Of a DNA stretch of 64,000 nt, positions 10,636 through 57,274 are shown piece by piece. The DNA lies in assembly GCA_951406725.2 (NCBI GenBank), contig OX597835.1:43090001-43154000 (forward strand), in the 5' to 3' direction. The stretch comes from Octopus vulgaris (Eukaryota). Position numbers and translations under genes: made by a program. Every line of letters begins with the position of its first letter. Position 1 is the first letter of the stretch. A model generated the notes under the pieces. That model searched no databases and had not been told where the DNA came from. It saw only the letters and a program-made list of their open reading frames with translations.

Positions 10636-10678
10636 CCACTACAATCGTTTCTTGTCTTGATCGACAATCTTCAGGTGG
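10636..10678 (-). ncRNA. Minimal type I hammerhead ribozyme in PLE-type tail (10455-10698)
   Basis: Reverse complement reads ccac-CTGAAGA-ttgtc(gatcaa)gacaa-GAAA-CGATTG-TA^gtgg. All three stems pair; stem III ACGATTGT is self-complementary with G.U. Confidence 0.85.
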
Positions 10679-15626: not shown

Positions 15627-18284
15627 TCATCTCTTTTGAGTCATAAGGAAAATACGGTCGGATATAAACTGGAAGGCACTGTAGAATGTGGTTAAGCTGC
15701 AATCGTGTATACCCCCAATAAGGCACGGTGCCATTAGATCCACAATAACCAATAAATTGATGTAGAATGTTTTCAGTTTCTGTGGTTCGACCAACATTAC
15801 TAACATCAATATGGCTACAGTGAGTATTTCATCAGAACAGACACAATATTGCTTATTATCGACTGAACAGAGGGTAGAAATCGTGGAATTTAAGCAATGA
15901 AACATTCGTGTTAAACAACGGAGTTTAGCGACAATACTACTGGTTATTGAAAGATTGTCCAAGTAGACTAGAGCTGGGGTAAACAACTGTTTGAACTTGA
16001 GTGTGTTGTATTGGGATTTTCTGGACGGTTTAGCTAAAGAAATCTCTGTGCGAACTGGTTCTTGTGGTCTGGGATTCGCAGATAAACGGGCCATAAAAGA
16101 CTCGTCAGAATCGACAGAGCTCTGTAAGGAGGTGCTTTGTGCAGAAATGTCCAGAGATTCCATTAGATTCGAGCATTCTTCATCAGCTCGCTTGTACAAA
16201 TTCCTCACCAAACTTCCTCGCCACTTCAAGTCTTCTAGTGAGGTAGACAGTCGAAAGTTACCAGTGTTCAAAATTTCTTCTTCTTCGCTGCTATTACTGC
16301 TACTTTTGCCAGAGTCTACCTGGCTGATGCCATCATACATGTCACACTTAGAAAAGAGATGCTGTACAAAGTCATCATCGGTAACAAATTCTGTAACAGA
16401 GAAATTTGCAATATTGCTGATGAGTTTTTGGCATTGCGAACCATAGGCTGTTGAGTAAAGGTAAAGAATATCGTCCATGATATTTAAGTACAGGTGACTC
16501 TCATAAATCAGCCACAGTTTGGCTGGAGAAATGTCTTCAGGTAAAAGTAGTGGTGGTAGGATTTGGTAGGTCATATTCTGCATGTGACTTTTGATATCAG
16601 AACAAATAATATCTAGAGAAGACTTCATAGGAATGGTTTTGAAACAATCGCTTAGAATGGACTGTCTTTTGTTCGAACAGCAGCCATCGTCTAATTCTGG
16701 TAATTCTATAGAATTGACACTTTGGTAACTTAGACTATCAGGAGAATTTGAAAGGGAGTTATATGTAAAATTTCTACGTCGATGTGTTGTGATTGTATTT
16801 TGATTTAGAATACTTAATTCCGCAGGCGAAATCCAAAATTCAGTAGACGTATCTTTCTTCAAAGTACCAAAGTTAAACATAACATTTTCATCAATAAAGG
16901 CATTTATTCTATCTCTAATGTTAGAACAAAAACGAACGTGAATTTTGTGTGCCGTTTCCTTGGGATTAGCTAAAATGTGAGCTATCTTTTCATTATGGGT
17001 TTTCCAATAATCAGGTTTTTCATTGACATCCAGAATGTCTGTAGCCCTTTCACTGCCATCGATTTTTACGTCTATACCCAAGGTTTCTCCAACAGATTGG
17101 ATATCTCGAATCGACATAGTTATAGCTTCGCGAACTGTCACCATTTTCACCTTATTGAAACATTGGTTCTGCAACTTTTCTTTTTGTTCCAATAACTTTT
17201 TGTAAACTTCATTATAAATATCATGAAATACATTCTTCTGTAATTTCTTGCGCCGAATTTTTTTCTTTTTCGATGCAGGCCTTACAATCACATTCTTTAT
17301 ATTTTCGCGAATATTTTCCAGATTTGTCAATTGTTGGTGAATTACATCTCTATCTTTGCGATAAATTTGTAACGTGCAAACATTTTGACTTTGACTCGCT
17401 TTCAAGTCGTTGATTTTTCTCTGACATTCATCCAGAAGTTTATCGTGCTTAAAAATGTCCCTTTCGACATCTTTGAGCAGGATTTCAAGAAACTCAGACT
17501 TGCAGTTATGTCTTATATAAGACTCTTTGTGAAAGCTTTCCGTGCGGAATAAACGTTCCCTTTGCGAACGAAGTGAGGATTCAGTTTGGAAAACAAGTTT
17601 GTCTTGTTTCAGGATAGCTTTTTCTATATTACTCAGCTGTTCGTGAATGTAATCCTGGGACTGCAAGAGAAGGGGCAGGTCGCAGGTGGTAAATTTTATT
17701 GACGGAAACACAAAACAGTGAAGTAGTCTTAATACGTGAGAATGGAATTGGTTGAGTGTGATTTCTTTACGCCTGAAATTGTTAAGACACTCGATAGCTT
17801 GGTCAAACAATTCGTCCAAGAAACATTCAAAATCGTAACATTCAGCATAGTCTGTGGCATCGATAGACTTTTCACTGAAACGATAATGAGAACAGAGGGT
17901 ATTGGAACCTTGTAGAGTTTCTTCAGTCTCGGCCTCCAGTGGTACACCCCCGCCACAAAGTCTAAAGGACTTTCGAAATTTAATTCGCCGAAGATCACAA
18001 TCCAGGTGAATATAAGAAATGACAAGGCATTTAAACCATATAGCAGGTTCCATCACAACGGTTTCAGAAGAGGTCGAGGCCTCCCCAACGCGAGGGCGAC
18101 AGTCGTCTCGTATGTTGACATCATAAATACTTTCGGTATGTTTCCCGAACTTTATACGTACCTCCATGTCTAAAACACAATTCAGATTGACAGGGGTGTT
18201 TTTAAATAATCCTCTCCGAGTAATTACGCTGTTACTTTCATTGCTGGTTTGTTTTGTAGATAAATTACAGCAGGGAAAACACAT
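15627..18284 (-). CDS. Uninterrupted 885-aa ORF, putative VPS9-domain protein (Rab5-family GEF-like) with central coiled coil
   Basis: 2.66-kb non-repetitive ORF with ATG start (alternative M40). The C-terminus FTPALVYLDNL...AKLRCLTRMF...CSDEILTVAILML...IGGIHDCSLTTFYSAFQFI resembles the VPS9 pattern (KL.CL / ADDLLP / Y.LT.F.SA..FI). Charged coiled-coil-like region at about aa 205-380 and a basic KKKKIRRKK stretch. Domain call by motif recognition only. Confidence 0.8.
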   Translation of the reverse strand: MCFPCCNLSTKQTSNESNSVITRRGLFKNTPVNLNCVLDMEVRIKFGKHTESIYDVNIRDDCRPRVGEASTSSETVVMEPAIWFKCLVISYIHLDCDLRRIKFRKSFRLCGGGVPLEAETEETLQGSNTLCSHYRFSEKSIDATDYAECYDFECFLDELFDQAIECLNNFRRKEITLNQFHSHVLRLLHCFVFPSIKFTTCDLPLLLQSQDYIHEQLSNIEKAILKQDKLVFQTESSLRSQRERLFRTESFHKESYIRHNCKSEFLEILLKDVERDIFKHDKLLDECQRKINDLKASQSQNVCTLQIYRKDRDVIHQQLTNLENIRENIKNVIVRPASKKKKIRRKKLQKNVFHDIYNEVYKKLLEQKEKLQNQCFNKVKMVTVREAITMSIRDIQSVGETLGIDVKIDGSERATDILDVNEKPDYWKTHNEKIAHILANPKETAHKIHVRFCSNIRDRINAFIDENVMFNFGTLKKDTSTEFWISPAELSILNQNTITTHRRRNFTYNSLSNSPDSLSYQSVNSIELPELDDGCCSNKRQSILSDCFKTIPMKSSLDIICSDIKSHMQNMTYQILPPLLLPEDISPAKLWLIYESHLYLNIMDDILYLYSTAYGSQCQKLISNIANFSVTEFVTDDDFVQHLFSKCDMYDGISQVDSGKSSSNSSEEEEILNTGNFRLSTSLEDLKWRGSLVRNLYKRADEECSNLMESLDISAQSTSLQSSVDSDESFMARLSANPRPQEPVRTEISLAKPSRKSQYNTLKFKQLFTPALVYLDNLSITSSIVAKLRCLTRMFHCLNSTISTLCSVDNKQYCVCSDEILTVAILMLVMLVEPQKLKTFYINLLVIVDLMAPCLIGGIHDCSLTTFYSAFQFISDRIFLMTQKR

Positions 18285-18839
18285 TAATAGGAGAAAGAAA
18301 TATAGAACATTTTTGTTTACTTACAAATATTAATAATATTTGTTATGTGTCAGTTATGAGTAGTCGTCTTCCGTGCACTGACATAACTCCGGGCGGGTGA
18401 GGCGTAGGTAAATACTCCAAATTTGAGATAAGCTTTTTATTTTTTAATCCTTTAATGAAATAACATCACAAACGAAAAGATAAGCCGCTTCAATTGTAGG
18501 TACACCACCACCACTTGTTGATAGCTTTAGTACAGAGGACACAATAGTAGGAGTTTAAATATTGTTGTTTAGTCATAGACAAACTATCAGCAAAAGCCCT
18601 TCACGTCATTTAGACGGCAGCGGGAGGGAAAAGCATTTAAATGTTGACATCATTAACAGCTACAATGTCTACACGACGAGTAAATTACAGTAAAATCCGA
18701 TTGTTTCCGATCTGTTTTCCCCCATCAACGTTGCTTTAGTTTTATAAGTTGTATCTGAAGTTTACATCATCGTCGTCGTCGTCCGGTCCGACTTCGTGGC
18801 TCGCACCTGCTCTGCTTAGTCCGGAATGACAAGACTCAG

Positions 18840-21084: not shown

Positions 21085-22094
21085 AGTATACATATACACA
21101 CATACATATACATATATATATACAACAGGCTTTTTTCAGTTTCCGTCTACCAAATCCACTCACAAGGCTTTGGTCAGCCCTGAGGCTATAGTAGAAGACA
21201 CCTGCCCAAGGTGCCACGCAGTGGGAATGAACCCGGAACCATGTTATTTCTTTATTATGAACCCGGAACCATGTGGTTGGTAAGCAAGCTACTTACCACA
21301 CAGCCACTCCTGCTCCTGTAAATATTTTATCATAAATGCAAAGCAACACAACAAGGGATAAGCCGCAATATGGTGAGGGATTACTGTGCATAGGCGCAGG
21401 AGTGGCTGTGTGGTAAGTAGCTTGCTAACCAACCACATGGTTCCGGGTTCAGTCCCACTGCGTGGCATCTTGGGCAAGTGTCTTCTGCTATAGCCTCGGG
21501 CCGACCAAAGCCTTGTGAGTGGATTTGGTAGACGGAAACTGAAAGAAGCCTGTCATATATATATATATATATATGTATGTTTGTGTCTGTGTTTGCCCCC
21601 CTAGCATTGCTTGACAACCGATGCTGGTGTGTTTACGTCCCTGTCACTTAGCGGTTCGGCAAAAGAGACCGATAGAATAAGTACTGGGCTTACAAAGAAT
21701 AAGTCCTGGGGTCGATTTGCTCAACTAAAGGCGGTGCTCCAGCATGGCCGCAGTGAAATGACTGAAACAAGTAAAAAAAGAAAGAAAAAAAAGATACGTA
21801 TGTGTACAGACTGACCCAAGGATCAAGAATGACATGCTTTGGCACCGTTCAAACGTCCCCGTAAGCAATACTGTATATATAGTGTGTGGATATGGTTGTG
21901 TGTTTGTGTTTGTCACACACACCCCGCCCCACCATTGCTTGACAACCGATGTCCTCGTAACTTAGCGGTTCAGCAAAAGAGACCAATAGAATAAGTACTA
22001 GGCTTGCAAAGAATAAGTCCTGGGGTCGATTTGTTTGACTAAAGGTGATGCTCCAGCATGGCCACAGTCAAAAGAATATACATATATATATATA

Positions 22095-22292
22095 ATTTAT
22101 TTTATAGAAGGAGCTTCTACAGGACTAGAACTGTTTCATTCAAAAGAAATCATCATGAGCTTCCTGATGATTTCTTTTGAATGAAACAGTTCTAGTCCTG
22201 TAGAAGCTCCTTCTATAAAATAAATTAATTTACTCTGCTATGTATTGAGTACCTTATTTACTGTGGTTAACCCCGACTCAACTCGGGACCTA
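22095..22292 (+). mobile_element. Minimal fold-back derivative of a family-A PLE pLTR
   Basis: About 60-bp inverted arm, then HHR, then the same 70-nt tail ending gggacctac|atat as the full element. Flanked by (TA)n and diverged at a few positions from the 53-kb copy. Confidence 0.85.
22157..22209 (+). ncRNA. Type I hammerhead ribozyme (family A variant)
   Basis: gagcttc-CTGATGA-tttcttttgaat-GAAA-CAGttctagtcCTG-TA^gaagctc. Differences from the 47.9-kb copy fall in N7 and the loops only. Confidence 0.85.
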
Positions 22293-22308
22293 CATATATA
22301 TATATATA

Positions 22309-23255
22309 CTTTATTTTAAGCAGCAGAAAATTCAACAAAATCTGTTACTCTGAGTTTCTCGTTGCCGTTCATCAGACAGTTTTTGCTAGAATGGAACTGA
22401 TATATCAATTCAATCTATACTCTTACAAACGCTACACCTTTAAAGAAATGGACTTGTTTGATTGGCCCTTTAGAAAAAACGGTCAATCTTGAGCGATAAA
22501 CAAAAAGGTCAAAAATATATGTATATATATATAAAAACTTATAAAAAATTATAAAAATTATAAAATCCGAGGAAAAAACCTATTGACGTTAATGAAGACA
22601 GTGCAAATTAATGCATAGAAATTAAACCTGTTATAAATACTGCAATACATATTTATATTAAAATCTACATATATATATCAACATACACAAAAGGATGCGC
22701 GTAAACGCCATACATACATATACAGACGTATGAATATATGTGTATATTTAGACTTATATTCATACGTCTGTATATGTATGTATGGGTTTACGCGCATCCT
22801 TTTGTGTATGTTGATATATATATGTAGATTTTAATATAAATATGTATTGCAGTATTTATAACAGGTTTAATTTCTATGCATTAATTTGCACTGTCTTCAT
22901 TAACGTCAATAGGTTTTTTCCTCGGATTTTATAATTTTTATAATTTTTTATAAGTTTTTATATATATATACATATATTTTTGACCTTTTTGTTTATCGCT
23001 CGAAGATTGACCGTTTTTTCTAAAGGGCCAATCAAACAAGTCCATTTCTTTTTAAAGGTGTAGCGTTTGTAAGAGTATAGATTGAATTGATATATCAGTT
23101 CCATTCTAGCAAAAACTGTCTGATGAACGGCAACGAGAAACTCAGAGTAACAGATTTTGTTGAATTTTCTGCTGCTTAAAATAAAGCATAATACTCTACC
23201 ACTGGTATTTGAGTACTCTTTTTTCCACCTTGTTTCACATTTATGTGTTTACTCC

Positions 23256-23258
<3 letters not shown>
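22309..23258 (+). mobile_element. Fold-back PLE terminal element, family B (about 430-bp arms plus about 70-nt tail)
   Basis: 22309-22738 is the reverse complement of 22755-23186. HHR in each arm, (TA)n on both sides, no ORF. Confidence 0.8.
23111..23158 (+). ncRNA. Minimal type I hammerhead ribozyme (family B); further copies at 22337-22384(-), 23332-23379(-), 23382-23429(+)
   Basis: aaaaactgt-CTGATGA-aCGgcaaCGa-GAAA-CTCaGAG-TA^acagatttt. GCAA-capped mini stem II, near-palindromic ACTC-A-GAGT stem III, GUA site. Confidence 0.8.
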
Positions 23259-23302
<44 letters not shown>

Positions 23303-23304
<2 letters not shown>

Positions 23305-23526
23305 TTTATTTTAAGCAGCAGAAAATTCAACAAAATCTGTTACTCTGAGTTTCTCGTTGCCGTTCATCAGACAGTTTTTGCAAAAACTGTCTGATGAACG
23401 GCAACGAGAAACTCAGAGTAACAGATTTTGTTGAATTTTCTGCTGCTTAAAATAAAGCATATTACTCTACCACTGGTATTTGAGTACTCTTTTTTCCACC
23501 TTGTTTCACATTTATGTGTTAATCCA
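23303..23526 (+). mobile_element. Short family-B fold-back with spacerless perfect palindrome (about 77-bp arms) plus tail
   Basis: Centre tttttg|caaaaa at 23380/23381; same tail as 23187-23258. Confidence 0.8.
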
Positions 23527-29136: not shown

Positions 29137-29420
29137 TATGTATGTATGTATGTATGTATGTGTGTGTGTATGTATGTATGTATGTATGTATGTATGCATG
29201 CATATATGTATGTATGTATGTATGTATGTGTGTGTGTATGTATGTATGTATGTATGTATGTACGTATGCATGTATGTATGTATGTATGTATGCATGTATG
29301 TATGTATGTATGTATGCATGTATGTATGTATGTATGTGAGTATGTATGTATGTATGTATGTATGCATGTATGCATGTATGCGTGTATGTATGTATGTATG
29401 TATGTATGTATGTATGTATG

Positions 29421-29451
<31 letters not shown>

Positions 29452-30090
29452 GTATATATGTATGTATGTATGTATGTGTGTATGTATGTATGTATGTATG
29501 TATGTATGTATGCATGTATGCATGTATGTATGTATGTATGTATGCATGTATGTATGTATGTAAGTATATATGTATGTATGCATGTATGCGTGTATGCATG
29601 TATGCATGTATGTATGCATGTATGCATTATGTATGTATGTATGTAAGTATGTATGTATGCATGTATGCATGTATGTATGTATGTATGTATGCATGTATGC
29701 GTGTATGTATGTATGTATGTAAGTATGTATGTATGCATGTATGCATGTATGTATGTATGTATGTATGATGCATGTATGCGTGTATGTATGTATGTATGTA
29801 TGTATGCATGTATGTATGTATGCATGTATATATGCATATATATATGTATGTATGCATGCATGTATGCATGTATGTATGTATGTATGTATATATGTATGCA
29901 TGCATGTATGTATGTATGTATGTATGTATGTATGTATGTATGTATATATGCATATATATATGTATGTATGCATGCATGTATGTATGTATGTATGTATGTA
30001 TGTATGTATGTATGTATGTATGTATGTATGTATGTATGTATGTATGTATGTATGTATGTATGTATGTATGTATGTATGCATGCATGCATC

Positions 30091-30121
<31 letters not shown>

Positions 30122-30302
30122 GTATGTATTTATGTATGTATGTATGTATATATGCATATATATATGTATGTATGCATGCATGTATGTATGTATGTATGTA
30201 TGTATGTATGTATGTATGTATGTATGTATGTATGTATGTATGTATGTATGCATGTATGCATGTATGTATGTATGTATGTATGTATGTATGTATGTATGTA
30301 TG

Positions 30303-30333
<31 letters not shown>

Positions 30334-30714
30334 GTATGTATTTATGTATGTATGTATGTATGTATGTATGTATGTATGTATGTATGCATGCATGCATGCA
30401 TGTATGTATGTATGTATGTATGTATGTATGTATGTATGTATGTATATATGCATATATATATGTATGTATGCATGCATGTATGTATGTATGTATGTATGCA
30501 TGTATGCATGTATGTATGCATGTATGCATGTATGTATGTATGTATGTATATATGCATATATATATGTATGTATGCATGCATGTATGTATGTATGTATGTA
30601 TGTATGTATATATGTATGTATGTATGTATGCATGTATGTACGTATGTATGTATGTATGTATGTATGTATGTATGTATGTATGTATGTATGCATGTATGTA
30701 CGTATGTATGTATG

Positions 30715-30748
<34 letters not shown>

Positions 30749-30786
30749 TGTATGTATGTATGTATGTATGTATGTATGTATGTATG
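29137..30786. repeat. 1.65-kb (TATG)n compound microsatellite
   Basis: Direct reading; variant units TGCA, TATA and TAAG recur. Confidence 0.98.
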
Positions 30787-40665: not shown

Positions 40666-41690
40666 CCACCACCACCACCACCACCACAACCACCACCACC
40701 ACTACCACCACCACCACCACTACCACCACCACCACCACCACAACTACCACCACCACCACCACCACTACCACCACCACCACCACTACCACCACCACCACCA
40801 CCACTACCACCACCACCACCACTACCACCACCACCACCACCACCACCACCACCACCACCACCACCACCACCACCACCACCACCACTACCACCACCACCAC
40901 CACTACCACCACCACCACCACAACTACCACCACCACCACCACCACCACCACCACTACCACCACCACCACCACCACCACCACCACCACCACCACCACCACC
41001 ACCACCACCACCACCACCACTACCACCACCACAACTACCACCACTACCACCACCACCACCACCACCACCACCACCACCACCACCACCACCACCACCACCA
41101 CCACTACCACCACCACCACCACCACCACCACCACCACCACCACCACCACCACCACCACCACCACTACCACCACCACCACCACCACTACCACCACCACTAC
41201 CACCACCACCACCACCACTACCACCACCACCACCTCCACCACCACCACCACCACCACCACCACCACCACCACCACCACACCACCACCACCACCACCACCA
41301 CTACCACCACCACCACCACCACCACCACCACCACCACCACCACCACCACCACCACCACCACCACCACCACCACCACCACCACCACCACCACCACCACCAC
41401 CAACACCAACACCACCACCACCACCACCACCACTACTACCACCACCACCACCACCACCACCACCACCACCACCACCACCACCACCACCACCACCACCACC
41501 ACTACTACCACCACCACCATCTCCACCACCACCACCACCACCACCACCACCACCACCACCACCACCACCACCACCACCACCACCACCACTACCACCACCA
41601 CCACCACCACCACCACCACTACCACCACCACCACCACCACCACCACCACCACCACCACCACCACCACCACCACCACCACCACCACCATCA
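40666..41690. repeat. About 1-kb (CCA)n trinucleotide array with CTA/CAA interruptions
   Basis: Direct reading. Confidence 0.98.
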
Positions 41691-44444: not shown

Positions 44445-45240
44445 TACAAAAAGACCGGATTTAGTCCTATGGAACAGAGACTGGAGTATAGGAATTTTAC
44501 TAGAACTGACAGTACCTTGGGAAGAGAACATCAGCAATGCAGAGGAATGAAAGGAGAAGAGGTACGAAAAGCTAATCAAAGAATGCAGAGAACGGGGATG
44601 GAATGTCGAATATTTTCACCTGGCATTGGGGGCTAGAGGCTTCATTGAAAGGAAAATGACAACACTTTTCAAAAGAAGATTTGTTTTTTCTAGACCCAAA
44701 CTGCGTAAACTAATAAGGAGAGTACAGGAGGCGGTTCAAAATGCCAGCTTCTATATATGGCAGAAGTGGGAGGACTGAAAATGGCTTGAAAGTCATAACA
44801 TGCTGGTGAGAAATAACATCACTAGGTGAGACAAGCTGACTGAATCAGCTTCGCTGACTGACAGGTGACAGTCGTTTAGAGAATGTGCGATCTAAAACTA
44901 TGCACCTTCACTAGTCAGTTAAGGTAAGACAGTGTCACGTGACAACTTACTGGGGCTGCCTGCTGGAGCCTAGTGACAGGTATTTACAGGGAAAAATTTG
45001 ACAAGTCAGTCAGTCACTGGCTGACACTTGCTGACGGTACATCGAAGAGGCCAGGGAACAGAAGAAAAAAGACATGCACCCAACACCAGAGCTGAAGACA
45101 CCTCCGAAAGGGGGGCCCCGCCACGTCAAAACGGTAGAGGAGTAGGGGCCGAAACCAGATGTGACTCCTCCTGATGATGTCTTGAGCTAACTGGATCCTA
45201 TAAAGGAGCTGTTGTAGAAGCAGACCACGAAACACGGTTG
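44445..45240 (+). mobile_element. HERO-like RLE non-LTR retrotransposon 3' fragment with 3' UTR
   Basis: RPDLVLWN...ILLELTVPWEENI..AEE*KEKRYEKLIKECRERGW...LALGARGFI; ELTVPWE and GxRGF motifs. Confidence 0.75.
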
Positions 45241-45676
45241 TAATTCCTCAGCAAACCCTGCTGTTAACCGTAAGCTATAAAATAATTTTTTCAGCTTATC
45301 AAACTTTGATATGGAGAATATTTACATCCTTCTATGCTAATAAACCACTATTGTTCCCGAAAATAGCTTTTTATACCTTCTACAGACTGTTTGAAGCTTA
45401 CTAACTTCCTACACCTTGATCCTTGAGTCTTACCTTTACACACATATATGTATGTATGTATGTATGTATGTGTGTGTGTATGTATGAGTAGGTGTAGGCA
45501 TGGCTATATGGTAAGAAGCTTGTTTCCCAACCATGTGGTCTTGGGTTTAGCCCCACTGTGTGGCACCTTGAATATGCAGTACCCAGTTACAGCCTCAGGC
45601 TGCCCAAAGCCTTGTGTATGGATTAGGTACACAGAAACTGAAAAAAGATGCTTGCGTGTGTGTGTATATACATACA

Positions 45677-45757
<81 letters not shown>

Positions 45758-45763
<6 letters not shown>

Positions 45764-46691
45764 TATATAGAAGGAGCTTCTACAGGACTAGTACTGTTTC
45801 ATTCAAGAGAAATCTTCAGGAAGCTATTTAACAAGAATTGTATTAGCATTTATACATTTAGGCAGGTTTAAAGGAGTGGTGGTGGGGGACTTTTTGGGGG
45901 TAGGCATAGCGCAAAATATCATACTTGGGGGAGTGGTCAAGGAGTCAGTGGTAAGTTAGATGAAAGAATAGATAAATAAAAAAATAAAAAAATAAAAAAT
46001 AAAAAAATAAAATAAAATAATAAAAAAATAAAAAAATAAAAAATATAAAAAATATATATAAAAAATATATATATAAAATATATATATAAAAAAATATATA
46101 TATAAAAAAAGGGGGATAGAGTTATAGGTAAATAAGGAGATTCTCACTTATACCTATACACACATGTATACGTATCTACACACACATACATACATACACA
46201 TATATATACACACACATATATATATATATATATACATACCTACACATACACACATACATGCATACAAATATACATATACATATATATATATATACAATCC
46301 AATACAGGCCCATTCCCTAATTTTAATTTTATTATCTTCATTTATTACTTTTGTTATCTTTGATCGCTAGGGCTAAGAATCCTGGCAATGGCTGCATGTC
46401 CATTTGTCTGTCTACTAGAAGGCAAGTACTCATTCCCGCACGCACACTCATTAGCACGTACATTCACCCATTCGTACACTCATACACATACACGTACGCA
46501 CGCGTTATATTCATACATACAAACATCTACATACGTTCACGTATATACACATACGTACTCGTACCTACAGATTCGTGTCTACACTTTAGGAGGCTAGTCT
46601 ATACATATACACCAATAAATATACATATATATATATATACCCGCATATACATACACACACACACATATATACTCCTACATACAGATACATA

Positions 46692-46741
<50 letters not shown>

Positions 46742-47245
46742 CATACACATACACACATACATATACACACACATACATACACATATATATACATACACAA
46801 ACATATATACACACACATATATATACACATATATATACATACACACATACACACATACATACGTATACATACATACATACATCCATACATCCATACTTAC
46901 ATGCATTTATACGCATACACACACCCATCTATATATATGTATATATATATATATATATATATACACACTCACACATACATATACAAATCTACGCACACAC
47001 ATACATACATACACGTATACGCATACACGCACATACACATATACATGCGTACCCATACACGTGCACACACGCACGCGCATCCATATATATACACACACAC
47101 ACATATATATACACGTGTGCAAGCATACATACATACTCATACGCGCACACATACTTACAAATACATATATGCACACACTTACACACATATATATACATAC
47201 ACATATACATGCATACATACATATATGCATACATACACACACGCA

Positions 47246-47293
<48 letters not shown>

Positions 47294-47358
47294 TATATAC
47301 ATATATAGACATATATACACATACATACACATACACATACATACACACATATATACAC

Positions 47359-47393
<35 letters not shown>

Positions 47394-47613
47394 TACATAT
47401 ATACACATATACATACATATACATACACACACACATACATATATACATATACACTGATACACATACCCATACATACACATGCATATACTTATATCACTAC
47501 ATACTCACATATATAAACATATATAAACATATATACATATACACACATACATATATACATGTACATACACATACGCATGCATATATATATATATACATAT
47601 ATATACACATATA
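45758..47613 (-). repeat. Inverted copy of the PLE 3' region (matches about 51166-53022)
   Basis: Near-identical reverse complement including microsatellite interiors; also visible as mirrored ORFs 46351-47457(+) and 51311-52417(-). Confidence 0.95.
45775..45825 (-). ncRNA. Type I hammerhead ribozyme (family A), inverted pLTR
   Basis: Reverse-complement copy of the same motif. Confidence 0.82.
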
Positions 47614-47991
47614 TTTTTATATATATTTTTTATATTTTTTATTTTTTTATTTTTTTATTATTTTATTTTATTTTTTTATTTTTTATTTTTTTATTTTTTT
47701 ATTTATCTATTCTTTCATCTAACTTACCACTGACTCCTTGACCACTCCCCCAAGTATGATATTTTGCGCTATGCCTACCCCCAAAAGTCCCCCACCACCA
47801 CTCCTTTAAACCTGCCTAAATGTATAAATGCTAATACAATTCTTGTTAAATAGCTTCCTGAAGATTTCTCTTGAATGAAACAGTACTAGTCCTGTAGAAG
47901 CTCCTTCTATATAATAAATTAATTTTACTCTGCTATGTATTGAGTACCTTACTTACTGTGGTTAACCCCGAATCAACCCGGGACCTACATA
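47612..47991 (+). repeat. 5' pseudo-LTR (direct repeat of about 52720-53093)
   Basis: Identical block ctattctttcatctaacttacc...cccgggacctacatat occurs before the ORF and at the element 3' end. Confidence 0.95.
47852..47902 (+). ncRNA. Type I hammerhead ribozyme (family A), 5' pLTR
   Basis: agcttc-CTGAAGA-tttctcttgaat-GAAA-CAGtactagtcCTG-TA^gaagct. 6-bp stem I, 4-bp stem III with palindromic ACTAGT loop, GUA cleavage triplet (after 47896). Confidence 0.85.
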
Positions 47992-48033
47992 TCTTAGCAC
48001 ACCCTAGTGCCCTTATAACCATCACCAAGAAAA

Positions 48034-50174
48034 ATGCTGACAAGAATCGACCTCGACACTTCCCTGAAGAACATTACTATCCCACCAAGGAAACAGTACC
48101 AAAAAGCCCTCATTAGACGGACTGATGAGTTCATCAAAAGAATTCGATGGAGATCTTTCTTCTTCGACAACCCTGATGTAGCATCTACCAGTAATGATAA
48201 GTACGGCTTCAAATCAAATAAGGCCCCTCCTACCAACAGCCTACTTGAACCGTTTGAAGAAGACCTCTTCCTCATGATAAAAAACATCAAATTCAGGAGA
48301 GTCAACTTACCTTTCCAAACGGAACTGAATGCGAAGCTTTCGAAAATGAAAAGCTCCCAGAACCTCCATGTCCCTTCGGACAAGACAAAAAATATTTACG
48401 CGGTGACTCCGGATACCTATAATAGACTAGCCGATAACGCCATCACAGCTAAATACAAGAAAGTAGACGACGTAGCGCTAACTGAAACCAACTTGGCCGG
48501 GAAAGAGATTGCCACCTCCCTTAAAATCGACGACCGAACAGAACCCCTGAGGGTGAAGTCCCCACACTTCACCCTGAAAGACCACAAAGACCATTTCGAA
48601 AATAAACCGTCGGTCCGTTTGATTAACCCAACCAAGTCTGACATCGGATCCGTCAGCAAGAAGATCTTGGACAGGATTTTACCAAAAATGCGTGAAGCTT
48701 CACCCCTTCCACTCTGGAATAGGACCTCCGAGGCAATAACTTGGTTCCGGGATTTACCAGATAAAAGCAACACCCGATTCCTACAACTGGATATCGAGGA
48801 TTACTACGCCTCTATATCGGAGAGCTTGCTGATCGATGCGATTAACTTCGCCAGGAGGTCCTCCACCATCACCGAGGCCGAGCAAGATGTGATCCTCCAC
48901 GCACGTAAGACTTTTCTTTTCTATGACGGATCCCACTGGATCAACAAAAAATCTGTGACCCCCTTCGACGTCAGCATGGGTGCTAACGACTCTGCTGAAA
49001 TAAGTGACCTAGTGGGCCTTTTCATCCTCCATAGGCTGAAAACCCTATTCACAGGCCTCTCCGGTGGTCTTTACCGAGATGACGGCCTTTTCGCCCTCCA
49101 CAATATAAACCCCAGGACCACGGATGGGTTCCGGAAAAATCTTCACACCTTCTTTAAAAACTTAGGCCTTAGGATTACCCTAGAATCCAACTTAACTAAG
49201 GCTAACTTCCTAGATGTCACCCTCGACTTAAAAACCTCACTTTATTACCCGTACCACAAACCAAATGAATCCCTTAGATATATAGATATCAATTCCAACC
49301 ACCCCAGAAATATATTAGATAACCTAGTAAAAAGTGTCTCAATTAGAATCTCTAGCCTGTCCGCCACGGAAGATATCTTTAAGGCCGCAGCCCCCTATTA
49401 CAACGAGGCCCTGGCCCGCAGTGGTTTTAAAGATAAGATTACCTACACTAGTATAGCCCCACGCCAACCCAGGAAAAATAGACGAAGACACATAAGCTGG
49501 TACAACCCCCCTTCAACCGTGAGGTCGCTACACCTGTAGCTAAGATCTTTTTCACTCTCCTACAGAAACACTTCCCCACCCAACATAAGTACTACACTAT
49601 CCTAAATAAGAACACTATTAGACTCTCCTACTCTACCACGCCCAACCTAGCCAGGAACCTAGCCAACAACAATGTGAAAAAACTTAACATATCTACTTTC
49701 TCCGGGGCCCATCCAACGTCCGATAGCAATTGCAACTGCCATGATAAAACCACCTGCCCCCTCAACAACAACTGCCTACAGAGGGACCTAGTATATAAAT
49801 GCGAGGTAAGATCAGGCCTTGACGATAAAAGTAAATCCTACATTGGAATGACGTCAAACAGCTTTAAGACCCGCTGGTATGCACATACACACTCGTTCCG
49901 GCGACAGGATAAATCCAACCAAACTACCCTCGCCGCCCACATCTGGTACCTTAAAAGGAACTCAATCCCCTTCAAGACCAAGTGGAAACTACTACAGAAG
50001 GCGCGCTCGTACACAGGAGGACATACCTGCTGTGACCTATGCATATCAGAGAGCCTAGAGATCTTGTTCGCCAAAGGCCCTCTCCTTAACAAATTTTCAG
50101 AACACTCCCCAAATTGCATGCATAAGAAGTATGCGAACTACAAGAACTATAGACCTACCCGGCAACCTGATTGA
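48034..50174 (+). CDS. PLE reverse transcriptase-GIY-YIG endonuclease polyprotein (about 713 aa) with a single frameshift at about 49506-49511
   Basis: RT motifs SDKTKNIY, RLINPTKS, LQLDIEDYY, FDVSMGA, GLYRDDGL, NFLDVTLDL, YHKPNE. Adding one C to the C6 run restores WYNPPFNREV...KHFP...NTIRLSYS and joins the 49674-50174 ORF: CNCHDKTTCPL..CL..DLVYKCEV...SYIGMTS..FKTRW..H...IWYLK...KWK...CDLCISE. Confidence 0.9.
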
Positions 50175-50421
50175 TGACAACCCCCCTACAACCCCCCTAC
50201 AACCCCCCTACAACCCCCCCAACCCCACTGTTCCCCTAGCACCCCCGATTACCTTTTCTCCTAAGACCTTTCACATATTATATGTGCACGCTTGTATATG
50301 TGTATCGTATGTATGTATGTATATATGTATAGAAATGCATGGGTACAGTAGGAATATACGCATGTATTATGTGTGTGTGTGTGTATGTATGCATGTAAAA
50401 AAATATATATGTATATATATT

Positions 50422-50466
<45 letters not shown>

Positions 50467-50841
50467 GCTTGTATGTGTGTGTGTGTGTATATGTGTATAT
50501 GTGTTTGTATGTATATGTGTATATATGTATATGCATATGTATGTGTAAATGTATGTGCTTATGTATGTGTATGTATGTATAAAATATTATATAATTAGGG
50601 CTTAGGAAAATAAAATAAATTACTTTGCCACATACTAAACTTTCTAGAAATAGCAGCCAATAAAGTTTTTTAGCCTCTTCCACTACTTAGAGAATTTTTT
50701 TCCCTCTAACATTGTTTACTCAAAATAATAATGGTCCCTTTACATACTGAACACTTGATGTAATTGATTAATAACTAATTAACTTTACCCTCCCTTGTTG
50801 ATATATATATATACATATGTATATGTGTACATGTATGTATG

Positions 50842-50874
<33 letters not shown>

Positions 50875-51132
50875 ATGTGTGTATGTATGTATTTGTATAT
50901 GTGTGTGTGTATATGTATGTGTGCGCGTGTGTGTGTATGTATGTGTATGTATACTTGTATATGTATATGCATGAATGTATATATATGTGTGTGTATATGT
51001 GTATTATGTATGTATTTATATAGATATGTAGTTTATATATATATATGTATGTATATGCATCTGTCTGTGTGTGTGTATGTGTATATATGTGTATCATTTT
51101 TGCGTATGTATACATGTATATGTGTATATGTA

Positions 51133-51169
<37 letters not shown>

Positions 51170-51374
51170 GTGTATATATATGTATATATATATATATGCA
51201 TGCGTATGTGTATGTACATGTATATATGTATGTGTGTATATGTATATATGTTTATATATGTGAGTATGTAGTGATATAAGTATATGCATGTGTATGTATG
51301 GGTATGTGTATCAGTGTATATGTATATATGTATGTGTGTGTGTATGTATATGTATGTATATGTGTATATATGTA

Positions 51375-51411
<37 letters not shown>

Positions 51412-51476
51412 GTGTATATATGTGTGTATGTATGTGTATGTGTATGTATGTGTATATATGTCTATATATGTATATA

Positions 51477-51524
<48 letters not shown>

Positions 51525-52028
51525 TGCGTGTGTGTATGTATGCATATATGTATGTATGCATGTATATGTGTATGTATATATATGTGTGTAAGTGTGTGCA
51601 TATATGTATTTGTAAGTATGTGTGCGCGTATGAGTATGTATGTATGCTTGCACACGTGTATATATATGTGTGTGTGTGTATATATATGGATGCGCGTGCG
51701 TGTGTGCACGTGTATGGGTACGCATGTATATGTGTATGTGCGTGTATGCGTATACGTGTATGTATGTATGTGTGTGCGTAGATTTGTATATGTATGTGTG
51801 AGTGTGTATATATATATATATATATATATACATATATATAGATGGGTGTGTGTATGCGTATAAATGCATGTAAGTATGGATGTATGGATGTATGTATGTA
51901 TGTATACGTATGTATGTGTGTATGTGTGTATGTATATATATGTGTATATATATGTGTGTGTATATATGTTTGTGTATGTATATATATGTGTATGTATGTG
52001 TGTGTATATGTATGTGTGTATGTGTATG

Positions 52029-52076
<48 letters not shown>

Positions 52077-52529
52077 TATGTATCTGTATGTAGGAGTATA
52101 TATGTGTGTGTGTGTATGTATATGCGGGTATATATATATATATGTATATTTATTGGTGTATATGTATAGACTAGCCTCCTAAAGTGTAGACACGAATCTG
52201 TAGGTACGAGTACGTATGTGTATATACGTGAACGTATGTAGATGTTTGTATGTATGAATATAACGCGTGCGTACGTGTATGTGTATGAGTGTACGAATGG
52301 GTGAATGTACGTGCTAATGAGTGTGCGTGCGGGAATGAGTACTTGCCTTCTAGTAGACAGACAAATGGACATGCAGCCATTGCCAGGATTCTTAGCCCTA
52401 GCGATCAAAGATAACAAAAGTAATAAATGAAGATAATAAAATTAAAATTAGGGAATGGGCCTGTATTGGATTGTATATATATATATATGTATATGTATAT
52501 TTGTATGTATGTATGTGTGTATGTGTAGG

Positions 52530-52572
<43 letters not shown>

Positions 52573-52955
52573 ATATATATGTGTATGTATGTATGTGTGT
52601 GTAGATACGTATACATGTGTGTATAGGTATAAGTGAGAATCTCCTTATTTACCTATAACTCTATCCCCCCTTTTTTTATATATATATTTTTTTATATATA
52701 TATTTTATATATATATTTTTTTATATATATTTTTTATATTTTTTATTTTTTTATTTTTTTATTATTTTATTTTATTTTTTTATTTTTTATTTTTTTATTT
52801 TTTTATTTATCTATTCTTTCATCTAACTTACCACTGACTCCTTGACCACTCCCCCAAGTATGATATTTTGCGCTATGCCTACCCCCAAAAGTCCCCCACC
52901 ACCACTCCTTTAAACCTGCCTAAATGTATAAATGCTAATACAATTCTTGTTAAAT

Positions 52956-53006
52956 AGCTTCCTGAAGATTTCTCTTGAATGAAACAGTACTAGTCCTGTA
53001 GAAGCT
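52956..53006 (+). ncRNA. Type I hammerhead ribozyme (family A), 3' pLTR
   Basis: Identical to 47852-47902; predicted cleavage after 53000. Confidence 0.85.
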
Positions 53007-53089
53007 CCTTCTATATAATAAATTAATTTTACTCTGCTATGTATTGAGTACCTTACTTACTGTGGTTAACCCCGAATCAACCCGGGACC

Positions 53090-53145
<56 letters not shown>

Positions 53146-53468: not shown

Positions 53469-54259
53469 TAAGGAACTTTAAAAATATACCAACAGTATAT
53501 TGATAAATGCTATCCCATAGTGGGTTACACCCATAACCCCTATCTTACTTTGTACTATATATATATATATATATATCATCATCATCATCATCCTCATCGT
53601 TTAACGTCCGCTTTCCATGCTAGCATGGGTTGGACGGTTCAACTGGGGTCTGGGAAGCCAGGAGGCTGCACCAGGCTTCAATCTTGATCTGGCAGTGTTT
53701 CTATGGCTGGATGCCCTTCCTAACGCCAACCACTCCATGAGTGTAGTGGGTGCTTTTTACGTGCTACTGGCACAGGTGCCAGGCGTGACTGGCAATGACT
53801 ACAATTGGATGGTGCTTATTTACGTGCCACCGGCATGGAGGCCAGTCGGGGTGGTGCTGGCAACTGCCACGATCAGATGGTGTTTTTTATGTGCCACTGA
53901 CATATATATATATATATATATATATAATTATGTGGTAATCTGTCAGCATGTAAAAATGCATTTAATCAGCTAAGAGAGTAAAGATAATGTGATATTTATA
54001 GACCATGTTAAATACAACTACTCAGGATTTCCTGGTCAAGATAATAATCTATTTTACCATTTATTAAGCTGAGAACTGTTTGTCAGATGTAGTTTAATCA
54101 GATAATGTTTAAACAAGAGATTCTGGTAAAAAAACAGAAGGGAGATAACCAATGTTACAATGATTCGATGTGAAGCAGAAGTAAACAAGATATCAATGGT
54201 TTACTAAGTGTCTGGTGGTCTGCTTTTAAATTCTGACAAGATGTATTTCTTGAAATACA

Positions 54260-54625
54260 GACATAAAGAAAAATTCCTGAAATTTATAGAGATGCAGTTT
54301 TTCAAGAGAACATACTAAACATTTTTTGGACCTGTTAATATTGGGTCTGGTTTTGGAGAGGATTTTCCATCTATCCTTGAAACTGGTCCCTTCATCTTTA
54401 AGTTTCCAGATTTAAATCAAAAGGGTTGTTGAATGCCTCTTATCATGGTACCTAAAATTCAAAAGGTGGTTGGTTGGTTGTAATACGTGGATTTAAATTT
54501 TCCCTTCCACAGCTCCAATATAATGTTTGATTTCTGTACGGCTATTGTTGTAGTTTGTTGAAACCTGTGCTTCATAAACAACAGAAGATCAATCACACTT
54601 CTGTCCAAGAGAACATTTTGATTTG
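54260..54625 (-). pseudogene. Old Hydra-type PLE GIY-YIG endonuclease remnant
   Basis: Manual translation with stops and shifts: KCSLGQKC..SVVYEAQV...HYIGAVEGKFKSTYYN...FRYHDKRHSTTL..IWKLKDEG..FKDRWKILSK...KKCLVCSLEKLHL, collinear with the 49.7-50.1 kb endonuclease. Confidence 0.75.
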
Positions 54626-55361
54626 TCTCTATGTGTACCTCCAGGACAGGCTTCAGTCATCCATTGCTTATTGATAAGTGACTTAACATTAAAGGGACGA
54701 GAAAAGGTAATTTCTATTGTGTGTCTGTTAAGGATTTGTTGTATCTATGGGTTCATAAGAACTTTACTGCCCACAGAGGGGACAAACAAAGAGAGATTAA
54801 GTCGATTATATTGACCCCAATGCGTAACTGGTACTTTTTTAATCGACCCCCAAAAGGATGAAAGGTAAAGTCGACTTCGGCGGAATTTGAACTCAGAACA
54901 TAGCGGCAGACAAAATACCACTAATCATTTCGCCCAGCATGCTAATCATTCTGCCAGCTTTGCTGCCTATGTATCTTTGGGTTCTAGGGAAGAGGATATC
55001 CTTTAAGTGCAAGAATCTTTTACTTACATTTGTCCTAACATTAAGGGGAAAAGTGGCACAAACCATAAAACTTTCCAGGACCTATTCTTACAACTAGAGG
55101 ATAGAGGTGGGGGTGGGGTTCATAAAAGATTTTATCAGTAAAACCACTATCCTCTAGGGTATTATTATATTATGGGGAAGCCTTTGTGAATGTCACTTTA
55201 GAAGTTGAAAGATGTGATCCTACAGCTAATGTTTGGAAATAAGTTTTTAAATACAATAGTTGGGTGACAGGCATGTTTATTAATATAGCCATCTATAATG
55301 TGTGCAAGTGCGTGTGTGTGCGCATGTGTGTGCGTGTGTGTGTGTGTGTGCGTGTGTGTGA

Positions 55362-55749: not shown

Positions 55750-55782
<33 letters not shown>

Positions 55783-55783
<1 letters not shown>

Positions 55784-57231
55784 GTTTAAATATTTGTTGT
55801 GCAAGATTTTTTATGTGAAGTCGTGTGTTGAAACAGATATTGTTATATTTCGGAATGGTCATATTGCCAGTTTAGCCAATAAAAACACACGCACTATATA
55901 TTTGGTGTTATTTTGCTTCAGTGATATTTATTTTTTACATTAATCTTAATCTTATTTCGGCCAAAGTTCTTTCGTCACACTCCTGTGACCGCATCAGTGG
56001 TCCTTTGTTTTCTTCTCACTTACTTGTGTCTCTCCTTACTAACCGTCAGCCATTTTGTATTTCTATTGTATGTCTTCATTTGCGCATGCTTATATCTCTA
56101 TGTGCGTCTATGTTTATTTAGTGTGTGTGGGGGGGGATGCCTGTAATATTTGTATCTTCTGGTTATATACATTCTTGTAATTTGTATTTTGTTTTTGTTG
56201 TTGTTGCTTTTGTTCTAATTTTGTTCATGTGTTTACATCCACCCATTATTATCATTACATATGCTTGTATGTATGTATAACAACAATATTAGTAATAATA
56301 ATAATAAATCTAATCGAAAAAAAAAAAAAAAAAAAAAAGAATATACATATACATATATATATATATACATACATATACATATACATATACATATATATGC
56401 ATATATACACACATATATACACATATAGATATTCATTTCTATTTCTTTAATTACCTGTGTATTTATTATGTTTGCAGGATCCACTATTGTCATATGTTGT
56501 GGTGTGCGCTATTGCTCCATTCTAGTTTTCTATTCAGGCTAGGTTTATTTTCTATTATATGTGTAGCTTCTGTAATTTGTCTAATTGTTGCATCTGTTCT
56601 ATGTGTGGACAATATCTTAATCTCTATGTTATTGATTGATCCCCCGTGTTCTTGTTCGGCGTGTTGGTACAGAATCGATGAGCTTTTACCTTCCTTGAGT
56701 TGTCTCCAATGTTCATTCACCCGCTCACCAATGCTTCTTTTTTTTTTTTTTTTTTTTTTTCGATTAGATTTATTATTATTATTACTAATATTGTTGTTAT
56801 ACATACATACAAGCATATGTAATGATAATAATGGGTGGATGTAAACACATGAACAAAATTAGAACAAAAGCAACAACAACAAAAACAAAATACAAATTAC
56901 AAGAATGTATATAACCAGAAGATACAAATATTACAGGCATCCCCCCCACACACACTAAATAAACATAGACGCACATAGAGATATAAGCATGCGCAAATGA
57001 AGACATACAATAGAAATACAAAATGGCTGATGGTTAGTAAGGAAAGACACAAGTAAGTGAGAAGAAAACAAAGGACCACTGATGCGGTCACAGGAGTGTG
57101 ACGAAAGAACTTTGGCCGAAATAAGATTAAGATTAATGTAAAAAATAAATATCACTGAAGCAAAATAACACCAAATATATAGTGCGTGTGTTTTTATTGG
57201 CTAAACTGGCAATATGACCATTCCGAAATAT

Positions 57232-57238
<7 letters not shown>
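55783..57238 (-). mobile_element. 5'-truncated PLE (family C) with inverted 500-bp arm
   Basis: Minus-strand GIY-YIG C-terminal fragment RSIGERVNEH...SILYQHAEQEH...IKILS...RQITEATHIIENKPSLNRKLE (56490-56735). 55838-56338 is inverted at 56738-57238, with an about 55-nt unpaired tail and (TA)n flanks. Confidence 0.85.
57073..57117 (+). ncRNA. Hammerhead-like motif with non-canonical core (family C); inverted copy 55959-56003(-)
   Basis: ggacca-CTGATGC-g-GTCACA(ggag)TGTGAC-GAAA-gaac-TT-tggcc. Perfect 6-bp stem II, but A9>C. Confidence 0.4.

Positions 57239-57274
<36 letters not shown>

Follow-up and report, generated by a model that had tools for sequence, protein, structure and literature searches.

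We analysed a 64,000-nucleotide (nt) stretch of the Octopus vulgaris genome (assembly GCA_951406725.2, contig OX597835.1, 43,090,001-43,154,000), hereafter the window, whose positions serve as coordinates throughout. The element at 45758-53092 is best explained overall as a Penelope-like retrotransposon of the Hydra clade that belongs to a new family and inserted recently, a reading in which we have high confidence; its identity as a Hydra-clade Penelope-like element (PLE) is almost certain. Downstream of the hammerhead ribozyme, this element and its relatives carry a pair of hairpins, which is a real, well-supported clade-wide structure and whose role we infer. We give an even chance to the broader proposal of an RNA element of the clade that was undescribed before, in which two bulged hairpins and adjoining TA patches would dock the reverse transcriptase (RT) and set both ends of the insertion, the length of its tail and its preference for (TA)n, with the octopus family keeping this rule through compensatory changes and seeding its own targets with 2 kb of TA-rich repeats.

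The insertion consists of an inverted, truncated arm followed by a longer direct arm with pseudo-long terminal repeats (pLTRs), an open reading frame (ORF) and a long 3' untranslated region (UTR), as listed in Table 1. The inverted arm is the reverse complement of 51152-53023, with 98.3% identity over 1,885 columns, 3 mismatches and 7 gaps; two of the mismatches lie at the arm junction and one in the interior, and every gap falls in simple-repeat or single-base runs. The direct repeat pairs 47588-47992 with 52693-53096, and its final 379 nt are identical. The ORF begins with an ATG at 48034, shifts frame in the six-C run and ends in a stop at 50172-50174; when it is read through with an X at the break, its 713 aa align end to end with 104 homologs (those of at least 660 aa among the best 120 of 1,445 matches in a protein search). 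The original prediction, made without database searches, had described near-identical direct and inverted terminal repeats, an RT-GIY-YIG ORF with a single homopolymer frameshift, and (TA)n flanks, and these all hold. Four further insertions in the window, from three families, likewise combine an inverted arm lacking the tail with a direct arm of greater length. Reading the inverted ends as those of a DNA transposon or a miniature inverted-repeat transposable element was ruled out, as the element encodes an RT and its arms are 3' copies of unequal length.

Table 1 Features of the element and its flanks (window positions; residue numbers refer to the 713-aa read-through protein)
Feature	Position	Strand	Details
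Left (TA)n target tract	45708-45759		
Inverted arm	45758-47626	-	5'-truncated copy of the element's 3' end, without the ~70-nt tail; stops just before hairpin 1
Hammerhead inside inverted arm	45775-45825	-	Core 45819; predicted cut after 45781
Junction of inverted and direct arms	47596-47626		Both truncation points in TA-rich tracts, overlapping by TA microhomology
5' pLTR	47602-47992	+	5'-truncated tandem copy; 47614-47992 identical to 52718-53096
Hammerhead of 5' pLTR	47852-47902	+	Type I; GUA site; predicted cut after 47896
Hairpin 1	47927-47949	+	ACTC/GAGT stem, inner U-A pair, 2-nt bulge; tail-less ends at 47919-47923
Candidate hairpin 2	47997-48012	+	GCAC/GTGC stem, degenerate, without inner pair; found after the pattern was relaxed
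RT portion of ORF	48034-49506	+	491 aa; RWR 38-40, DKT 116-118, D253, YRDD 347-350; predicted fold like telomerase RT (TERT)
Six-C run	49506-49511	+	Frame break; one base longer in contigs of 4/4 sequencing runs
Linker and GIY-YIG endonuclease	49509-50174	+	221 aa; CxCx5C 567-575, Y588, YIG 603-605, R614, H618
C-terminal endonuclease residues	within 49509-50174	+	CxxC 667-670, E673, N686, CxH 695-697
Long 3' UTR	50175-52961	+	2,787 nt, of which 2,009 nt in tandem-repeat arrays
3' pLTR	52706-53092	+	Hammerhead (core 52962, predicted cut after 53000), hairpin 1 (53031-53053), tail (53024-53092)
Right (TA)n target tract	53093-53143		

Craig et al. 2021 (PMC8557442) characterize the Hydra clade by a C-terminal endonuclease (EN), RWK and DKT motifs, a CxCX5C linker, absence of CCHH, a CxxC and a CxH, hammerheads and insertion into (TA)n. 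In our element the EN is C-terminal within one ORF, with one frameshift here and an open frame in other copies; DKT replaces DKG (DK[TS] in 104/104 homologs); GFKS occupies the position of GxKF/Y, which is not conserved in Hydra; and the linker cysteines C567, C569 and C575 recur in 99/104 homologs. CCHH is absent, with a single cysteine between Y588 and YIG, and C667/C670 and C695/H697 flank the E and N. All of the GIY-YIG residues (Y, YIG, R, H, E and N) are present and are invariant in 94 alignment rows. A canonical hammerhead, whose cleavage is predicted, and (TA)n insertion are both found, as are the traits of EN-bearing PLEs, namely pLTRs, an optional inverted 5' copy and a tail at one end. 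The original prediction had listed DKT, the CxCx5C linker and a C-terminal CxxC, all of which were found, together with a "KW" motif. A tryptophan motif is indeed present at residues 38-40, but the published N-terminal motif is RWK and not KW (PMC8557442), and RWR is a conservative variant of it (RW[KR] in 103/104 homologs). Membership of Penelope/Poseidon, Neptune or Nematis was rejected, as it needs DKG and CCHH (the last two also a CX2-5CxxC linker), and so was that of Naiad/Chlamys, which needs an N-terminal EN, DKA and a fingers insertion, since the element has a C-terminal EN, DKT and no insertion relative to its homologs.

Likeness to published proteins and predicted folds agree with the Hydra-type assignment already made in the original prediction. 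When two short RT motifs were searched in the supplement of Craig et al. 2021 (PMC8557442), the first three of 11 and of 15 matches, respectively, were all Hydra proteins. The RT model (predicted local distance difference test, pLDDT, 93.9) has telomerases as its top four Foldseek matches (E 2.5e-9 to 1.3e-8), while the EN model (pLDDT 88.2) has I-TevI as its best VIA match (Z 9.1, root-mean-square deviation 2.7, 89 aligned), followed by three further GIY-YIG-type nucleases; Foldseek gave the EN a weak match only, to T4 EndoII at E 0.22. A Pfam scan of both ORF halves returned no match for the window protein, and homolog P0087 matches Pfam RVT_1. Sequence searches of the PDB with the protein and with a profile gave no match, and a search of viral contigs found no relatives. 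In a quick tree of 61 Hydra-like rows (built with the first 60 homologs of at least 560 aa, trimmed to 560 aa), the protein shares a long branch with P0001 and P0002 (Shimodaira-Hasegawa-like approximate likelihood ratio test, SH-aLRT, 99).

Several observations speak against this placement. The 5,104-nt unit exceeds the length of published Hydra families, "generally <3 kb" (PMC8557442), a trait that is descriptive and not diagnostic; the quick tree holds Hydra-like rows only, with no outgroup from other PLE clades; and the protein deviates at 23 of 168 near-invariant columns, compared with a homolog median of 5 and maximum of 17. Because other copies share the deviating residues, we take them as lineage divergence and not as decay of this copy. 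What is new here is the family and not the clade: Hydra-1_Obim from Octopus bimaculoides is already published, so an octopus host is no surprise. The two families are separate, as one ungapped conserved block has 49/101 identities (hand count) and their hammerheads differ. Bonar et al. 2026 (PMC13282606) count 31 Penelope-like families with recent activity in O. vulgaris, with Hydra unnamed in the accessible part of that paper, and their library may include this family.

The three hammerheads of the original prediction were recovered by a type I descriptor, and their 71-nt stretches are identical. Each has a 6-bp stem I, CUGAAGA and a U.U closing a 3-bp stem II; this U.U closing occurs in the hammerheads of 21/45 relatives and in many published Hydra ones. 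Helix III has 4 bp and an 8-nt near-palindromic loop, 16 nt in total compared with 6-10 nt in the 45 relatives, and it is almost self-complementary, with predicted energies of -15.2 kcal/mol as a dimer and -1.4 kcal/mol as a monomer. The descriptor matched nine times in the window and once in total over 20 shuffled windows. An Rfam scan left the hammerheads undetected, returned microsatellite-driven miRNA noise only and gave no family for the hairpin. Support for the hammerheads comes from motif and topology because free-energy z-scores give none (about -0.25). Counting against our overall reading, the hammerhead with its tail attached is predicted to misfold, the active pairs having a probability of about 0.02 and a rival hairpin over the cut site prevailing. 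PLE hammerhead cleavage is described as low or protein-assisted by Cervera and de la Pena 2014 (PMC4209133) and Frangieh et al. 2024 (PMC11167929), which the predicted misfolding fits. The hammerhead probably processes RNA only if a protein refolds it or another copy pairs with it.

Downstream of the cut site, relatives share the hairpin motif GCTC-Y..R-YY-GAGC-ACT, generalised as RCTC-Y..R-YY-GAGY-AC. The hairpin lies within 90 nt of the cut at 35/44 sites (37-55 nt after it), compared with 34/1,073 control windows; one doubtful hammerhead (L055, 170) had been dropped from the 45 sites. A second copy is present at 20 of the 35 sites, with a spacing of 55-83 nt in 21 cases, and four of the nine sites without a hairpin enter (TA)n just ahead of its expected position. 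Among 80 distinct motifs, 78 have a Watson-Crick fifth pair, which lies beyond the 2-nt bulge and outside the search pattern (54 C-G, 24 U-A; shuffle maximum 60). In a 35-row alignment, from which two near-duplicates were removed and in which two stretches were extended so as to include the correct partner, 94.9% of cells are paired, a level reached by 0/500 shuffles and compared with 19-60% in slid controls; only three cells are G-U. Both our element and the second family in the window carry the compensated stem ACTC/GAGT, and the motif is visible in 4/6 published new Hydra consensus sequences (Hydra-2_Amil, both Ajap and, as a variant, Crog). The hairpin goes unmentioned in the accessible main and supplement text of PMC8557442, figure images being outside that scope, and in the accessible text of Li et al. 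2026 (bioRxiv 10.64898/2026.07.22.740005), the supplement being outside it. Literature searches gave no description of the hairpin, with older subscription papers, figure images and the Frangieh supplement outside their scope.

The ends of copies lie close to these hairpins. Among eight comparisons of full and ending copies in related loci, four (L004, L019, L020, L057) end 3-4 nt before a hairpin and a fifth 3 nt before one, the last at a contig end. The window copies at 22203 and 53001 also end 3-4 nt before a hairpin. For this family, the tailed end at 47992 is 4 nt before candidate hairpin 2, which starts 70 nt after hairpin 1, and the tail-less ends are 3-7 nt before hairpin 1. Contigs from sequencing runs continue into (TA)n after 47992 (37 contigs in run X9, 3 in X10 and 2 in X1) and after 47919/47923 (12 contigs in X9, 1+1 in X1). 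In addition, TAT/ATA occurs at -9..-3 of the motif in 63/82 cases, compared with a 15% background. One of the related loci, L004, also holds a second complete Hydra-type element facing the first (minus strand, 5517 to ~2930), with both hairpins before its ORF and a 3' end that enters (TA)n just before hairpin 2.

We lean towards a rule in which docking on the hairpins fixes the start of copying 3-4 nt 5' of them, helped by TA pairing. In Frangieh et al. 2024 (PMC11167929), AT-rich DNA is nicked on both strands by a PLE protein, and copying begins at two sites inside the RNA that equal the two genomic ends. By extension from that Poseidon element, a transcript through a pLTR would be translated, the protein would bind its own RNA, nick both (TA)n strands and prime cDNA from each nick at internal RNA sites. 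Here, the protein would dock on the hairpins, and synthesis would begin 3-4 nt 5' of one or other of them, where a TA-rich patch can pair with the nicked (TA)n primer. Initiation at hairpin 2 would yield the tailed direct arm, which spans one unit plus 390 nt of the following one (the 5' pLTR), and initiation at hairpin 1 on the opposite strand would yield the tail-less inverted arm; the two cDNA ends would then be joined via TA microhomology. With two such starts, tail length would therefore equal hairpin spacing.

Some of the evidence runs counter to this rule. The covariation counts are of sequences and not of independent events, relatedness being ignored. Of the eight end comparisons, two lie 12 and 16 nt from a hairpin and two are contig ends, one comparison being uninformative, and the inverted arm of our element stops 7 nt before hairpin 1. 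Hairpin 2 of the element is degenerate and was recognised post hoc, junctions are few, and ends are blurred by TA microhomology. Finally, the start site of anole Poseidon is without target homology and the same on both strands, and hammerhead cleavage is dispensable there (PMC11167929).

Two other mechanisms bear on the same ends. The hairpins might be signals in DNA or single-stranded cDNA, with the EN cutting 3-4 nt 5' of either and the ends arising from resolution and not from RT starts. Craig et al. 2021 (PMC8557442) explain the tail by EN-mediated resolution, and recognition by the D. virilis EN required the tail according to work cited in PMC11167929. Covariation that is nearly all Watson-Crick, with three G-U cells, does not distinguish RNA from DNA. 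We nevertheless consider such signals unlikely, given that in the sole PLE reconstituted in vitro the two ends are two RT start sites (PMC11167929) and that the TA patch beside each hairpin fits primer pairing. A rolling circle, as put forward for PLEs by Cervera and de la Pena 2014 (PMC4209133), appears slightly less improbable: two sense hammerheads would excise a 5,104-nt monomer (47897-53000), and RT passing round the circularised RNA would make the partial tandem. This monomer contains both hairpins and the whole ORF, is compatible with the hairpin rule, and has a helix III that can form alone or as the near-perfect dimer described above. Against it, Poseidon hammerhead mutants left in vitro insertion unaffected (PMC11167929), and folding predictions favour the competing hairpin that covers the cut site.

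The recent origin of the insertion, also part of the original prediction, is very probable, as the arms are near-identical, with one interarm substitution away from the junction and the remaining gaps in simple repeats or single-base runs; three one-base interarm differences in single-base runs fit either slippage or read error. Among the sequencing runs listed, 20/24, from 7 studies, contain at least half of the stretch's words. We compared four runs from four studies, one of which may be the window's source, over 47720-50260. In the contigs of all four, the C run is one base longer and the frame is kept. Contigs match the window with 0 differences over 47991-48576 (586 nt) and with 4, all synonymous, over 48541-49424 (884 nt). 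Among the 40 variants shown (88 more being unshown), 39 are coding, 30 synonymous and 9 non-synonymous, compared with a chance expectation of 22% synonymous. At 49275, a contig of run X16 connects an inverted pLTR, through its A-rich tract, to a copy whose truncation point lies in the RT, and so represents another insertion with the same inverted-plus-truncated layout. Right after the stop, an 11-nt C-rich repeat of 3.9 copies (50177-50219) varies in length and is 30 nt shorter in an X1 contig.

From these sequences the family looks functional, because the frame is open in other copies and variants show a synonymous excess, and competent copies probably exist in the species. The earlier suggestion of possible activity thus stands for the family but not for this copy, which is frameshifted as assembled and carries at 49494, a synonymous site, a base that differs from all four runs and occurs in no compared contig; both features count against our overall reading. 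The frameshift is either an assembly error or a real mutation; the neighbouring 897-codon host ORF is unbroken, yet as a comparison for frameshift errors it contains just one long single-base run. This frameshift and private base, together with the most deviant protein of the 105 aligned, might instead mark a dead copy from a recent burst of an extinct or nearly extinct family, its arm identity owing partly to gene conversion or assembly polishing, since inverted repeats can undergo homogenisation. We regard this as improbable: the frame is open in other copies, every catalytic residue is retained, the close match of run contigs makes the deviations family-wide, and the family sits on its long branch with P0001 and P0002 with strong support.

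The long 3' UTR sets the element apart from its relatives. Its stop-to-hammerhead distance is 2,788 nt, compared with 66-516 nt (median 110) in 28 relatives. These came from 78 related metagenome loci, of which 24 were dropped for want of an EN end, and from the remaining 54, of which 26 had no detected downstream hammerhead; the 2,890 of L024 belongs to another ORF. With such short distances in relatives, and run contigs compared only up to 50260, the microsatellite UTR may be specific to this copy or its immediate donor and not family-wide, which we find plausible though less likely. Since 1.5 kb of it is present in both arms, nearly unchanged, the UTR was part of the template and was not acquired after insertion.

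Other PLE insertions and fragments surround the element. A mini-element of the same family lies between TA tracts at 22093-22297, with an inverted hammerhead, a direct hammerhead and a tail, 92-94% identical; it is centred on the stem I start, the core of its inverted copy is damaged, and an X1 contig has a similar palindrome at 47852. Two non-coding insertions of the second family (22305-23257 and 23300-23520) have an inverted tail-less arm and a direct arm, with four hammerheads, a Hydra-like helix III and the ACTC/GAGT hairpin; the latter insertion is a palindrome centred on stem I, with its right end cut short. A third PLE-type insertion in (TA)n, on the minus strand at 55772-57239, has arms 99.4% identical over 502 nt, a 65-nt tail on one side, a C-terminal EN-like frame piece and a hammerhead-like core with a changed base, and no Hydra hairpin. 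An old, broken remnant of Hydra-like type at 54244-55287 (minus) covers the linker, the EN and a small part of the RT thumb (25-35% identity, E down to 6.5e-15) and is split by another repeat. A solitary type I hammerhead of different sequence is found at 10640-10674 (minus), ~170 nt from (TA)n and without a hairpin.

The rest of the window includes a C-terminal fragment with an in-frame stop at 44450-45250, with (TA)n at its 5' border and, after it, a structured GC-rich segment containing a CTGAAGA..GAAA that did not pass the type I descriptor. This fragment resembles what we take to be the restriction-like endonuclease of a non-LTR (long terminal repeat) retrotransposon, a label without Pfam support. 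The uninterrupted 897-codon host ORF (15627-18320, minus) has a weak C-terminal VPS9 match and 8 homologs found; an uncharacterised protein of Octopus sinensis matches it at 99% identity, in keeping with the cephalopod host of the original prediction. Large arrays comprise ~413 copies of TATG (29137-30786) and ~341 copies of CCA (40666-41687).

Young and of textbook PLE architecture, the element illustrates well a clade from which about two dozen families, one of them in octopus, have been described, and the 1,445 homolog matches indicate that this clade is far larger than described. The covarying hairpin matters more than the element itself; it predicts both ends within a few bases and can serve as a marker for annotating Hydra boundaries. 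Start-site choice and the one-ended tail of PLEs, of which one has been reconstituted so far, thereby become directly testable.

Compared with named systems, the element shares with the Hydra clade (PMC8557442) a single ORF with RT followed by a C-terminal GIY-YIG domain, DKT, CxCx5C, CxxC and CxH around E and N, the lack of CCHH, a type I hammerhead near the 3' end and the (TA)n target; an inverted 5' copy is recorded there as well, for Penelope-13_HM. It differs from that clade in its 5.1-kb monomer, 2.8-kb microsatellite UTR, RWR for RWK, long-branch protein, 16-nt helix III and ACTC/GAGT for GCTC/GAGC in hairpin 1. Hydra-1_Obim has the same clade, host genus and consensus departures (SDKT, HARKT, MGAxDS), whereas it measures 2,507 bp, has another hammerhead and is listed without a pLTR, in addition to the divergence in the conserved block. 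Poseidon PAc of Anolis carolinensis (Frangieh et al. 2024, PMC11167929) likewise has a pLTR-ORF-pLTR order, a hammerhead, an AT-rich target and two ends that bracket a tail 3' of the hammerhead. It belongs to another clade, however, and its starts lie in an AC-rich stem loop within the ORF, without target homology, with a tail of 30-40 bp, whereas the ends of our element lie in the 5' UTR region, at TA patches before a repeated covarying hairpin, with a tail of ~70 nt. The closest structural matches to the RT model are telomerases, at ~10% identity, although our element also encodes an endonuclease and uses its own long RNA as template. In telomerase, the short template patch that base-pairs with the DNA primer is held in position by an RNA stem, and the hairpin offers a parallel to this template positioning by a sister enzyme.

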